64,000 nucleotides of DNA from Klebsiella pneumoniae (lineage in GTDB: Bacteria > Pseudomonadota > Gammaproteobacteria > Eutrophobiales > Eutrophobiaceae). The stretch covers positions 19,387-83,386 of the forward strand of contig CAMDWI010000014.1 in assembly GCA_945878555.1 (NCBI GenBank), written 5' to 3'. How positions within the stretch are numbered: the first letter of the stretch is position 1; each line of letters begins with the position of its first letter. The translations under genes were made by a program, and so were the position numbers. Positions 11,083 through 55,543 of this stretch are shown piece after piece. Under the pieces are notes generated by a model that saw only the letters and a list, made by a program, of their open reading frames with translations, had not been told where the DNA came from and did not search any database.

Positions 11083-12162
11083 ATGAAGGTCATTGTTGGT
11101 ATCTCCGGTGGTGTCGATTCCGCCGTATCCGCGTTGTTATTAAAACAACAGGGATATGAGGTCGAGGCCTTGTTCATGAAAAACTGGAACGAACCCGCCG
11201 GTGACGGCCAGTGTTCATGGGAGGCCGAGGTTGAGGATGCCTTGCAGGTCTGTGAAAAACTCGCTATTCCCCTCAATACTATCGACCTGTCCAATGCCTA
11301 CTGGGAGTCTGTATTCAGGTTGTTCCTGCAGGACTACAGCAATGGCCTGACCCCGAACCCGGATGTCTTGTGTAACCAGGAGATCAAGTTCACTGCCTTT
11401 ATGGAACAGGCCCTGAAACCAGGCGCAGACTGTATTGCCACCGGTCACTATGCACGGATCGCGCACAATGGTGACAACTTTGAATTGCAAAAGGGGCTCG
11501 ATGCGAACAAGGACCAGTCCTATTTTTTATGCCGGTTGACCCAACAACAGTTGTCACGCTCCCTGTTCCCGGTAGGTGAACTGGAAAAGTCCGAAGTTCG
11601 CAGACTGGCCGCCTCAGCCGGGTTGCCGGTACATGATAAAAAAGACAGCACCGGGATCTGCTTTATCGGCGAACGCCCGTTCCGCGAATTTCTCAGCCAG
11701 TATCTGCCTGTCCGCAAAGGCCTGATCCAGACAGTGGACGGCCAGACTGTCGGTGAACATGACGGCGCCTGTTTTTACACGATAGGCCAGCGTCAGGGGC
11801 TCGGCATTGGCGGCGTACGCGGTCTGGACGTCGCCCCCTGGTATGTCGCTGACAAGGATATCGATCAGAATATACTCTACGTCGTACAGGGGGCTGACCA
11901 TCCCTTGCTGTACCGCCGCGAATTAACGGCAAAAAACCTGCACTGGATCGCCGGCAACGCCCCGGATGCACCCTGGCAGTGCACCGCCAAAACACGCTAT
12001 CGCCAGCCCGACCAGGCCTGTGTAATCGAGGCCATAGACGCAGACGCGCTAACCGTGCGCTTTGCAGAGCCCCAACGTGCCATCACACCCGGTCAGTACG
12101 TCGTCTTTTACCAGGACCAGACCTGTCTGGGTGGTGGGGTCATACATTCGTCGCGTAATTAA
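11083..12162 (+). CDS. mnmA: tRNA-specific 2-thiouridylase MnmA
   Basis: 359 aa. PP-loop VIVGISGGVDSAVSA, then NPDVLCNQEIKF and DSTGICFIGE (catalytic Cys regions). Confidence 0.95.
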   Translation: MKVIVGISGGVDSAVSALLLKQQGYEVEALFMKNWNEPAGDGQCSWEAEVEDALQVCEKLAIPLNTIDLSNAYWESVFRLFLQDYSNGLTPNPDVLCNQEIKFTAFMEQALKPGADCIATGHYARIAHNGDNFELQKGLDANKDQSYFLCRLTQQQLSRSLFPVGELEKSEVRRLAASAGLPVHDKKDSTGICFIGERPFREFLSQYLPVRKGLIQTVDGQTVGEHDGACFYTIGQRQGLGIGGVRGLDVAPWYVADKDIDQNILYVVQGADHPLLYRRELTAKNLHWIAGNAPDAPWQCTAKTRYRQPDQACVIEAIDADALTVRFAEPQRAITPGQYVVFYQDQTCLGGGVIHSSRN

Positions 12163-12226
12163 ACCAACCCGACGCAAATAAACAAGTAACCTGGCCGGAA
12201 TGTATACGCGGCCTCAATAGATAACT

Positions 12227-12344
12227 CCGCAGCGGTAGAACCGTTTGCCCGTGTAAGACCGTGTGCCGCATGGATGCGGCACCCGAGCCTACATGGATGT
12301 ATTCACGGCGTGTCTGTAACGGGCAAACGGTTCTGCCGCTGCGG
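12227..12344 (+). repeat. Intergenic hairpin element, copy A: 26-bp copy-specific inverted repeat enclosing a conserved core
   Basis: Arms 12227-12252 and 12319-12344 pair at 26/26 positions, including one T:G. The core contains GTGCCGCA-TGGA-TGCGGCAC and TACA-TGGA-TGTA. The same core recurs at 19589-19658 and 55396-55467. Confidence 0.9.
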
Positions 12345-12532
12345 CACCTTATTAGTTGTTTCTAGAGATAACCCAGAAGACCGGAGCAGCTCGCTTGCGG
12401 AACCATTCTACCGATGACCGGTTATCCGGGTATCCGGACTTGCGCTTTCAGGATTTTTCACTGTCACGGACTCATGAAATATCGCATAATAGCCACCTTT
12501 ATGAACCACCCTATTTATCACCGGAGTCGTCG

Positions 12533-19065: not shown

Positions 19066-19542
19066 TTATGCCCTGATTTTTCGCATCACTGAAATCATTT
19101 CCACTGCAGCCTGTGCCGCCTCGGAACCCTTGTTACTCTCTTCATCTCCTGCCCTGTCCTCTGCCTGCGCTACATTGTCTACCGTCAACACGCCAAAGAT
19201 CACCGGCACACCATAATCGAGCGCAACCCGGGCCACACCATCCGAGCAGGTTTGCGCGATGATATCAAAATGCGGTGTCTCACCGCGTATAATCGCACCG
19301 AGGGTAATAATCGCATCCGGATTTACAGTCACCGCTATTTCCCTGGCCGTCACCGGTATCTCAACAGCACCCGGCACCTTCACAACAGTTATTGCGTTGT
19401 TGCCGATACCGGCCGCATTCAATGTCTTGAGACACCCCTGTAATAATCTGTCGACGATGTAACTGTTATATTTGCTCATGACAACAGCGACCTGACAAGG
19501 TGCCGGCCGTCCCTCTGCTTCGACTATTTTAAATGTATCCAA
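19066..19542 (-). CDS. ribH: 6,7-dimethyl-8-ribityllumazine synthase
   Basis: Homology starts around FKIVEAEGRPAPCQVAVVMSKYNSYIVDRLLQG...VKVPGAVEIP...GAIIRGETPHFD. The track ORF (to 19620) reads 26 codons into repeat copy B. I place the start at TTG 19542, giving 158 aa. There is no in-frame ATG upstream of the conserved region. Confidence 0.85.
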   Translation of the reverse strand: MDTFKIVEAEGRPAPCQVAVVMSKYNSYIVDRLLQGCLKTLNAAGIGNNAITVVKVPGAVEIPVTAREIAVTVNPDAIITLGAIIRGETPHFDIIAQTCSDGVARVALDYGVPVIFGVLTVDNVAQAEDRAGDEESNKGSEAAQAAVEMISVMRKIRA

Positions 19543-19565
19543 AATCTCGTCTCGCTTACGGTGCC

Positions 19566-19681
19566 GAACCCGGCTGTCCGCTATGGTTGTGAAAGACCGT
19601 GTGCCGCATGGATGCGGCACCCGAGCCTACATGGATGTATTTACGGCGTGTCTTGAATAACCATAGCGGATAGCCGGGTTC
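19566..19681 (+). repeat. Intergenic hairpin element, copy B: 23-bp copy-specific inverted repeat enclosing the conserved core
   Basis: Arms 19566-19588 and 19659-19681 pair at 23/23 positions, including one G:T. The core's 61 nt from AAGACC to GTGTCT differ from copy A at one position. Confidence 0.9.
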
Positions 19682-23117: not shown

Positions 23118-24374
23118 CTAACGCTCATACATCGGGTAACGGTCACACAATAACCTGACCTGCCCGCGGATACGGGCAAGGACAGACTCTTCACAACGAC
23201 TGTCAATCACATCACAAATCATGTTGGCCACCTCACGTGCCTCGGCCTCGCGGAAGCCGCGTGTGGTGATCGAAGGTGTTCCAATGCGTATGCCGCTGGT
23301 GATAAATGGTGACTGTGGATCATTCGGCACGGCGTTTTTGTTCACGGTAATGTGCGCCTTGTCGAGTGCCGCATCCAGCTCCTTCCCTGTCAAACCCTTG
23401 TCGACCAGATCGACCAGGAACAGGTGATTATCCGTACCACCGGAGACTATCTTGACACCCCGTTTAACAAATTCTTCAGCCATCGCCCTGGCGTTGTTCA
23501 GCACCTGCTGCTGATAAACCTTGAACTCCGGTTCCATCGCTTCCTTGAAGGCCACCGCCTTGGCCGCAATCACATGCATCAACGGGCCACCCTGATAGCC
23601 CGGGAAGACAGAAAAATTGATCTTCTTTTCAATATCCTTGTTTTCACGGCCCATGATCAGTCCGGAACGCGGACCGCGCAGCGTTTTGTGTGTGGTTGTA
23701 GTCGTCACATCGGCAATCTGAATCGGACTGGGATACAGCCCGGCGACAATCAGACCGGCCACATGGGCGATATCTGCTACCAGATAGGCACCAACCTTGT
23801 CGGCTATCTCGCGGAAACGCTGCCAGTTAACCACACGTGAATAGGCCGAAAACCCGGTCATAATCAGTTTCGGCTTGTGTTCGAGTGCCAGGCGTTCGGC
23901 CTGGTCATAATTGATTTCACCGGTCGCCGGGTCCAGTCCGTATTGTACGGCCTGATAAACGCGCCCGGAGGCATTGACCGAGGAGCCGTGCGTCAGGTGA
24001 CCACCATCGGCCAGGCTCATCCCCATGACTACATCACCCGGCTGGACCAGGGCCAGATAAACCGCCCCGTTCGCCTGGGATCCCGAATGCGGCTGGACAT
24101 TGGCAAAATCAGCACCAAACAGTGTTTTGGCCCGATCAATGGCCAGCTGTTCGATCACGTCGGCATATTCACAACCACCGTAATAACGTTTGCCGGGATA
24201 GCCCTCGGCGTATTTGTTCGTCAATATTGAACCCTGGGCCTCAAGCACACGCGGGCTGACATTATTTTCCGAGGCTATCAGTTCAATATGCTCTTCCTGA
24301 CGCCTTACCTCGCCCTGCATCGCCTGCCAGAGCACATCATCATAACCTTCTATTTTCATATCCTTATTGAACAT
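23118..24374 (-). CDS. glyA: Serine hydroxymethyltransferase
   Basis: 418 aa. ELIASEN, the PLP-lysine region [12 protein letters not shown], and full-length SHMT similarity. Confidence 0.96.
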
Positions 24375-55325: not shown

Positions 55326-55376
55326 TTTTAGCTACTGACAGTAAAGAACTCTTACGTATGCCATTAAAGTCGGGGG

Positions 55377-55486
55377 TCAGCCGTCTGGCTATAATTGTGA
55401 AAGACCGTTAGCCGCATGGATGCGGCGCTCGAGCGTACATGGATGTATTCACAGCGTGTCTTGAACGATTATAGCCAGATGGCTGA
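55377..55486 (+). repeat. Intergenic hairpin element, copy C: 19-bp copy-specific inverted repeat enclosing the conserved core
   Basis: Arms 55377-55395 and 55468-55486 pair at 19/19 positions, including one G:T. The core differs from copy A at 6 of 61 positions. Confidence 0.9.
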
Positions 55487-55543
55487 TCTTGCAGGAAATT
55501 CCAGCAGATTTTATCAACCAATCTTGTTATCTATCGAAACATC

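Follow-up and report, generated by a model that had tools for sequence, protein, structure and literature searches.

A dispersed intergenic element related to YPAL/RU-2 with a covarying rod and a conserved head that resembles a double CsrA site

How can three intergenic repeats share an almost invariant centre when each is enclosed by an inverted repeat that appears to be its own? The question is raised by a stretch of 64,000 nucleotides (nt) of Klebsiella pneumoniae DNA (assembly GCA_945878555.1, contig CAMDWI010000014.1, positions 19,387 to 83,386 of the forward strand; the whole stretch is called the window here), in which an element of 110–118 bp occurs three times (copies A, B and C). An original prediction, made from the letters alone, described a 61-nt core with two hairpins on copy-specific arms and offered two readings: a mobile core that inserts into hairpins or generates them as an inverted target duplication, or a structured RNA with a closing helix whose sequence can change freely. 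Our analysis places the element in a known family, traces the arms to the evolution of a paired rod and points to a candidate binding site for the RNA-binding protein CsrA in the conserved head.

The three copies were found on the + strand of the window exactly where they had been placed. Their 61-nt heads, running from AAGACC to GTGTCT, differ at one position between A and B and at six between A and C, as had been reported, and two hairpins are present in every copy: hairpin 1 reads GTGCCGCA/TGGA/TGCGGCAC in A and B and GCCGCA/TGGA/TGCGGC in C, and hairpin 2 reads TACA/TGGA/TGTA in all three. The arms (26, 23 and 19 bp in A, B and C, respectively) had been described as pairing at every position, which is correct if one G·T pair is allowed per copy, whereas as DNA the match is 25 of 26 in A and 22 of 23 in B. 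Copies B and C do show the tandem G·A/A·G mismatches noted beside the AAGAC/GTCTT helix, whereas in copy A their place is taken by a GUA/GUA 3 × 3 loop. Each copy folds as a long rod with a two-hairpin head (energies and z-scores in Table 1), and a strong fold is predicted for both strands. A covariance model built from relatives (R1) identified exactly these three sites in the window. The next-best match (23917–24007; 16.7 bits), which lies inside an open reading frame (ORF) of 418 amino acids on the opposite strand (23118–24374) and has no GGA loops, was dismissed as chance.

The window gave no Rfam match at gathering thresholds. In a permissive scan, the only match was Ysr224 (RF02770), at full length on the minus strand of copy A (42.2 bits, E = 1.2e-8, below the gathering threshold of 70), and the same model scores 29–30 bits on related loci. 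Comparison of copy B with plasmid records by blastn revealed 28 identical bases, CGAGCCTACATGGATGTATTTACGGCGT, in Yersinia records; R1 scores 69 bits at that site in Yersinia pseudotuberculosis, which corresponds to the centre of the 168-nt Y. pestis RU-2 sequence (PMC2759123, Delihas). The core matches a described family, an outcome that the original prediction had listed against itself: on sequence grounds, homology between the head and the central part of YPAL/RU-2, which is Rfam Ysr224, is clear, and the element is a new relative of this family, not a new kind. RU-2 is the same element as YPAL, for which De Gregorio et al. 2006 is the source of the name Yersinia palindromic sequence. It resembles a miniature inverted-repeat transposable element (MITE) with internal inverted repeats and is present in 30–144 copies per Yersinia genome (PMC2229807, PMC2847712, PMC2267715), and Ysr224 is multi-copy (PMC9029176, PMC12112432). 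YPAL is reported to have been mobile recently, with target duplications of 3–26 bp and targets at or near dyad symmetries, and to be co-transcribed with upstream genes, possibly affecting their stability (PMC2229807).

An exact-pattern scan for the double-loop core, using one genome per species, recovered at least 86 loci in Stenotrophomonas, Lysobacter, Solilutibacter, Alteromonas, Idiomarina, Aliidiomarina, Saccharospirillum, Legionellales, Thiotrichaceae, Competibacteraceae and others, in which R1 makes 148 matches. Whether such relatives also carry private inverted repeats had been proposed as a check, and every copy in these loci does. The arms had further been said to share no sequence between copies. 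This stands for A and B, whose rods are at background similarity, but not for B and C, whose rods are homologous: the arms align gapless and in register, with a proximal part of GCTATGGTTGTG in B and GCTATAATTGTG in C and a change from GG/CC to AA/TT. Among 11 copies of the B/C type, pairing holds in 98.7% of rod cells, with double changes at 18 of 27 pairs (a level reached by 0 of 500 shuffles). In the metagenome-assembled genome (MAG) CAMBTO01, the arms of copy C recur at seven unrelated loci, accompanied by ~40 nt of the outer flank. Extended copy C has 83–93% identity over 110–161 nt to loci L003, L042, L050, L062 and L071 (twice), and the outer flanks of C-type copies form an imperfect inverted repeat with outer ends of roughly TAAATAACTGTTC ... 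GAACAGTTATTTA.

Copy B has an orthologue on a metagenome contig (L087; RibH 89% identical) with the same place, orientation and arms, in which the terminal G–C pair is swapped to C–G and the G·U pair is restored to G–C. The two rods have diverged by ~7%, compared with ~20–25% for the adjoining spacer, which argues for purifying selection at this fixed site. The comparison of ribBA–ribH junctions that had been suggested has two outcomes: the site is filled, with the same arms, in this close relative, and in relatives with 59–64% RibH identity the spacer is 3–17 nt long, with no hairpin and neither arm. No solo arm of the A or B type without a head was detected in the window or the fetched loci. 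The shared arms, the orthologue and the homology of the B and C rods indicate that the arms belong to the element and that their evolution is constrained by pairing. What looked like private arms is ordinary compensatory change in the closing helix, not a new insertion mechanism.

We further characterized the fold using 45 aligned representatives (RNAalifold and pair counting). Compensatory double changes were found in 23 of the 33 modelled pairs, and 85% of cells were paired, against 67% in shuffled alignments (0 of 500 shuffles reached the observed value) and 28–43% when the partners were slid. In the head, support extends to the three lower pairs of hairpin 1, to a 2-bp helix around that hairpin (CG/CG, CA/TG, CC/GG, CT/AG) and to the lower stem of hairpin 2 (GCC/GGC, GCG/CGC, GTC/GAC, GTT/AAC, GGC/GCC). 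Covariation backs every helix of the rod and the head, and its presence within the head helices identifies the head as a three-way junction.

The residual mismatches of the rods reveal which strand is constrained. When the left arm was aligned to the reverse complement of the right arm and all mismatches were scored alike, transition mismatches that form G·U on the GGA-bearing strand outnumbered the others by 53 to 10 with one representative per arm cluster (p = 3e-8), and by 94 to 27 over all copies. The bias holds in copies that are co-oriented (14:2) and anti-oriented (21:3) with their neighbouring genes; because it does not depend on gene orientation, the single-strand constraint belongs to the element and not to a host mRNA. 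The constrained form is the single strand bearing the GGA loops, most likely as RNA. Together with the compensatory pairs, this bias supports the second of the two original readings, a structured single strand with a free closing helix.

The loops provide a candidate function for this strand. Both loops of each window copy read CANGGANG and lie ~23 nt apart. Two CA.GGA.G motifs spaced by 22–26 nt (mostly 23) occur in 128 of 136 distinct full-length elements, with variation limited to the base before GGA (T, G, A, C), the base after it (T, C, G) and the covarying closing pair of the loop (G..C, A..T, C..G). The consensus for CsrA/RsmE is (A/U)CANGGANG(U/A), the CsrA ligand obtained by systematic evolution of ligands by exponential enrichment (SELEX) is RUACARGGAUGU, and a spacing of ~20 nt suits both RNA-binding faces of one CsrA dimer. 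Hairpin 2 (UACAUGGAUGUA) agrees with 11 of the 12 positions of the SELEX ligand and, position for position, what is fixed and what varies in the loops corresponds to the CsrA/RsmE consensus. In a searchable paper library, no paper was found that ties YPAL or Ysr224 to CsrA or to the TwoAYGGAY motif, and no Rfam family of Csr/Rsm RNAs matches at the related loci or in the window.

On this evidence, we consider it somewhat probable that the element is a dispersed, YPAL-related structured-RNA module with a head that serves as a double CsrA site. The whole unit, rod and head, is inherited and dispersed together. Held only to pairing, the rod drifts by compensatory change until subfamilies look unrelated, and the head is constrained in sequence. 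The GGA strand is predicted to fold into a rod of 20–30 bp (or longer) that leads to the three-way junction and presents two CANGGANG loops ~23 nt apart, making the head a putative high-affinity double site for one CsrA/RsmA dimer. Copies that are transcribed could titrate CsrA or couple the fate of the carrier transcript to it. The rod may be a barrier to 3′ exonucleases or a substrate of double-strand-specific RNases, in which case RNase III would be a candidate for its cleavage.

Several observations weigh against this explanation. The strongest objection concerns transcription, for which no route to the GGA strand of anti-oriented copies is visible: scans for promoters and terminators, which were crude consensus scans, detected no sigma-70-like promoter 5′ of the GGA strand of the window copies and no promoter enrichment relative to the mirrored 3′ flank in 47 families (p = 0.25). 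Single copies at the relatives' loci are co-oriented and anti-oriented with neighbouring genes in equal numbers (16:16), and copy B lies antisense inside the rib operon. The Rfam model of Ysr224 also describes the opposite strand. Loop conservation is partly ascertained, as one copy per locus was chosen with CATGGATG in both loops and the loop variants come from partner copies found by the model. In the orthologue of copy B (L087 344–438, minus strand), the hairpin 1 loop has GAA for GGA, so that one GGA is lost. Finally, copies A and B have heads that differ at 1 of 61 positions on rods of different length and background similarity, and near-identical heads with unrelated rods recur in L008/L044 and in two copies of L058; for A and B, this is not explained by simple descent with drift in the absence of head-limited conversion. 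Gene conversion confined to the 61–75-nt head would explain A versus B, a head-only transfer may have occurred for copy A, and template-switch correction of quasi-palindromes could help to keep the rods perfect.

Among the alternatives, it is possible but in our estimate unlikely that the element is selfish DNA, with the head as the recognition site of a trans-acting enzyme of host or transposon origin, the rod as a structural need and one DNA strand or an RNA copy being mobilized, possibly by an HUH/Y1-type enzyme or through template switching at the replication fork. The CsrA-like loops would then be coincidental and there would be no RNA function in the cell. Such an origin is compatible with a G·U(T) asymmetry that is intrinsic to the element and independent of gene orientation, with the lack of a promoter in the consensus scans and with a random orientation to genes and an avoidance of divergent-promoter regions, as seen for REPs (repetitive extragenic palindromic sequences) and MITEs. 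The dispersal of C-type copies at unrelated loci, the presence of a copy on Escherichia coli plasmids and the reported recent mobility of YPAL, with 3–26 bp duplications beside dyad symmetries (PMC2229807), also favour it. However, no enzyme is known or was seen, and the window has no target duplications: direct repeats flanking the copies were not significant (p = 0.11, 0.46 and 0.89 versus shuffles), in agreement with the original prediction that none lie outside the arms. Furthermore, the loops match the consensus of an RNA-binding protein at each position, the orthologous copy B is old and has been retained by vertical descent, with a rod that diverges less than its spacer, and the arrays and conserved paired loci of other orders look gene-like. 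A 7-nt direct repeat, AGATAAC, is placed asymmetrically around copy A (12219–12225 and 12366–12372) and is equalled in 11% of shuffles.

We regard it as quite unlikely that the copies are autonomous small RNA (sRNA) genes, each encoding a two-site CsrA/RsmA sponge with its own promoter and with the rod as terminator. Genes of this kind would account for a strand asymmetry that ignores the neighbouring genes and for the arrangement of paired copies, which at more than 30 loci are always in the order (−,+) with their 5′ ends facing, and never (+,−), as expected of divergent transcription from a shared control region. About half of the facing pairs sit between convergent genes. Arrays in which two to three units stand in tandem (in Aliidiomarina, Alteromonas and Idiomarina), a Legionellales pair with an AT-rich 115-nt spacer and TAAATA-like boxes beside both rods, and the lack of any Csr/Rsm Rfam family at these loci are further points in favour. 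Against such genes, promoter-like sites are missing 5′ of copies A–C and promoters are not enriched across families. Nor does a T-tract terminator follow any rod in the window, as the original prediction had stated in denying that these are canonical intrinsic terminators; the only match is a 5-bp sub-hairpin with a T-rich tail at the 3′ end of copy A. A consensus scan around a Legionellales pair likewise gave no promoter- or terminator-like signal. In addition, copy B takes up 116 nt of the 167-nt spacer that separates two genes of an operon, and some Lysobacter pairs leave only ~45–50 nt between their 5′ ends.

A role for the rod only, in which RNA hairpins of either orientation would stabilize the transcripts of neighbouring genes or bring about their termination (a function proposed for YPAL, ERIC and Correia elements), seems very unlikely to us. 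At the relatives' loci, nearly all single copies are indeed placed immediately 3′ of genes and hardly any between divergent ones, both strands fold strongly, and YPAL is reported to be co-transcribed with upstream genes with a possible effect on stability (PMC2229807), but such a role leaves unexplained the conservation of the head sequence across orders and the strand asymmetry of anti-oriented copies, and T-tracts are absent. The first of the original readings, that the 61-nt core alone moves, into hairpins or making an inverted target duplication, is hardly credible: near-identical heads on unrelated rods and YPAL targets reported as spanning or adjoining dyad symmetries (PMC2229807) would agree with it, but it was rejected for B and C because the C-type arms and outer flanks are common to seven loci, the orthologue of copy B keeps the same arms, the rods of B and C align in register as homologues and distant ribBA–ribH junctions hold neither a hairpin nor either arm; conversion confined to the head explains A versus B more simply.

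A wider and less probable proposal, which we put forward as tentative, can also be made: the head may be a portable, high-affinity double CsrA/RsmA site that has spread across Gammaproteobacteria on a self-pairing rod without a protein of its own, so that the MITE, TwoAYGGAY and the sponge RNAs would form one continuum. In Yersinia and the window, it would be a dispersed MITE that wires transcripts to CsrA or acts as a distributed sponge; in Xanthomonadales, Legionellales and Alteromonadales, it would be a domesticated module, arranged as facing pairs or tandem arrays, that supplies unrecognized Csr/Rsm antagonists. Should the head bind CsrA, the long-known but functionally opaque YPAL/RU-2/Ysr224 family would acquire a concrete function at the molecular level, a mobile element could disseminate binding sites of a global post-transcriptional regulator, and candidate antagonist RNAs would be available for Xanthomonadales and Alteromonadales, in which they are poorly defined. 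For the private arms, the main result is deflationary. For annotation, the units matter because they break assemblies and because both relevant Rfam models miss them at their thresholds. A Logan contig (L175 4058–4197) that is identical to the window stops inside the head of copy A, which suggests an assembly break at the repeat.

Table 1. Coordinates of the three copies and their parts in the window (energies are for the folded single strand, z-scores are relative to dinucleotide shuffles and bit scores are those of model R1)
Feature	Position	Strand	Remarks
Copy A, whole unit	12227–12344	+	−79.8 kcal/mol; z −10.7; 100.2 bits
Copy A, rod 5′ strand (26 nt)	12227–12252	+	pairs with 12319–12344; one U·G at 12236
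Copy A, rod 3′ strand	12319–12344	+	pairs with 12227–12252
Copy A, head (61 nt)	12255–12315	+	three-way junction, parts below
Copy A, P1b	AGAC 12256–12259 with GTCT 12312–12315	+	
Copy A, P2	CG 12260–12261 with CG 12284–12285	+	
Copy A, hairpin 1	12263–12282	+	GGA 12272–12274
Copy A, hairpin 2 and lower stem	12287–12309	+	GGA 12295–12297
Copy B, whole unit	19566–19681	+	−74.1 kcal/mol; z −11.5; 101.8 bits; orthologue in L087
Copy B, head	19593–19653	+	hairpin 1 19601–19620, GGA 19610–19612
Copy B, hairpin 2 and lower stem	19625–19647	+	GGA 19633–19635
Copy B, tandem G·A pairs	G19591·A19656, A19592·G19655	+	
Copy C, whole unit	55377–55486	+	−60.5 kcal/mol; z −9.0; 94.3 bits
Copy C, head	55401–55461	+	hairpin 1 55411–55426, GGA 55418–55420
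Copy C, hairpin 2 and lower stem	55433–55455	+	GGA 55441–55443
Copy C, extended	55339–55523	+	outer imperfect palindromic flanks conserved with C-type copies elsewhere

The genes originally named for the positions beyond stop codons (mnmA, ribBA and a cytochrome c gene) are correct, although copy B is antisense to its neighbours. Copy A sits in the mnmA–acnA interval (mnmA stop at 12162, acnA start at ~12533) and is co-oriented with both genes, and copy C begins 51 nt past the stop of the cytochrome c gene, with which it is co-oriented. Copy B, in the ribBA–ribH spacer and antisense to both genes, is separated from the ribBA stop by 28 nt and from the probable TTG start of ribH (19542) by 23 nt. 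A mechanically called ribH ORF with a GTG start at 19620 overlaps copy B (window 19479–19620); typical RibH N termini favour the TTG at 19542.

Among the relatives, facing pairs are exemplified by L053 5244–5612, L027 516–857, L017 2365–2719 and L082 3114–3468, with spacers of ~30–280 nt, and arrays by L079 7280–7760, L021 4135–4403, L078 3289–3483, L022 515–1082 and L019 645–2246; in L079, three units of ~150 nt adjoin three tRNA genes. Stenotrophomonas copies (L002, L010, L017, L034, L049, L075 and L082) have ACTGTC in common just 5′ of the rod, contain in the 3′ strand of an outer rod a third GGA (CACGGAAUG) that is often followed by GCTTTTG, and sit among other short palindromic repeats. 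The CAMBTO01 MAG is labelled Klebsiella pneumoniae, has a GC content of 53–55% and holds at least nine copies of the element; the label looks doubtful. Its contigs (L003, L014, L042, L050, L062, L063, L071 and L077) have no flanking DNA in common with the window. One of them (L014 5212–5297) has a head that is 100% identical to that of copy B over 54 nt, lacks the 5′ GACCGTGTG and has its own perfectly paired rod. In E. coli, a YPAL-like copy was found in just 5 of 5426 complete genomes, on plasmids in 4 of the 5; on plasmid NZ_CP058751.1 (34775–34881; L167 3990–4107), the copy is downstream of an alcohol dehydrogenase gene, within a segment that has IS26 and ISKpn26 at its borders. The same head (GACCGU..GGCAUGGAUGCC..CGAGCC..) is present in Shewanella oneidensis and S. 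sediminis (NC_004347.1 ~1172000 and NC_009831.1 ~2551200), as seen in the flanks of another motif's alignment in file 93 of the Weinberg 2010 supplement.

Viral contigs contain weak, TwoAYGGAY-like modules at most. A viral contig of 71% GC (L170 13983–14047) scores 39.4 bits with TwoAYGGAY (gathering threshold 43) and has a second, inverted copy ~900 nt away. On a viral contig (L171 3165–3235) and in a Brevinematales MAG (L051 4599–4669), matches to the Type II hammerhead ribozyme (55 bits; gathering threshold 37) are found, together with a tRNA, a few hundred bases away from modules with two GGA hairpins.

Like the window copies, YPAL is multi-copy, intergenic and non-coding, forms a long hairpin with internal inverted repeats, and is co-transcribed with, or lies beside, the 3′ ends of genes. 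The window units differ in length (110–118 bp, or perhaps ~185 bp for copy C with its flanks, compared with 167–168 bp for YPAL and 130 bp for a variant), and neither their rods nor the outer 50–60 nt on each side have any sequence in common with the 168-nt element. They also lack target duplications, with the site filled in the lone close relative (L087), and their host is neither Yersinia nor Erwinia.

The architecture of the element is of the same kind as that of TwoAYGGAY (RF01731), of which it is a putative member. TwoAYGGAY has two AYGGAY loops and a P1 stem that is often very large, for example, 24 bp (Weinberg 2010 supplement); tandem G·A pairs and an outer stem of low conservation are further features, and the two loops match a model for sites bound by CsrA (PMC4333381, Gardner and Eldai), so that the motif had already been put forward as a CsrA binder. 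Both have a three-way junction, a long and poorly conserved P1 (19–26 bp or more in the window) and a second hairpin with an internal loop, and both occur in Gammaproteobacteria; the two loops of the window copies are AUGGAU. Tandem G·A pairs are found in B and C, but copy A has GUA/GUA and many other lineages of the element lack them. The junction sequences are unlike those of the Psychromonas members, and RF01731 (gathering threshold 43) gave no match on copy A at E ≤ 10, none in the window at gathering and none in seven related loci at E ≤ 0.1. TwoAYGGAY and the element could belong to one superfamily or have converged.

With the Csr/Rsm sponge RNAs (CsrB/C, RsmX/Y/Z and RsmU), the element shares GGA in hairpin loops that match the CsrA consensus, and the tandem arrays of Alteromonadales hold 4–6 such loops; these arrays resemble multi-GGA sponge RNAs and match no Csr/Rsm Rfam model. 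It differs in having just two sites per unit, carried on a long duplex, in being dispersed in multiple copies, and in that consensus scans found no promoter, upstream activating sequence or terminator for it. Sponge RNAs have a promoter of their own, often dependent on GacA/UvrY, and an intrinsic terminator. RsmU is a fragment of the comEA 3′ untranslated region that is restricted to Xanthomonas; neither for it nor for the Pf sRNAs of Pseudoalteromonas is a link to the element stated.

The original prediction also recognized, on the complementary strand, the layout of REP elements mobilized by RAYT transposases, a GTAG tag followed by a palindrome. This likeness fails, as the tag varies (GTAG, GTAA, GTAC) and overlaps the stem of hairpin 2, and no RAYT was seen in the 64 kb. 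REPs resemble the element in being extragenic palindromes at the 3′ ends of genes, often in inverted pairs and with a strand-specific hairpin, but they are 20–40 bp long, with a conserved GTAG or CGTC tag at one end, compared with 110–200 bp for the element, whose paired members have different rods. ERIC/IRU and Correia/NEMIS elements are small, co-transcribed palindromic insertions that form long RNA hairpins and can be targets of RNase E or RNase III (PMC2229807). They have conserved terminal inverted repeats and TA duplications and no conserved protein-binding head, whereas in the present element it is the centre that is conserved, on a variable stem.

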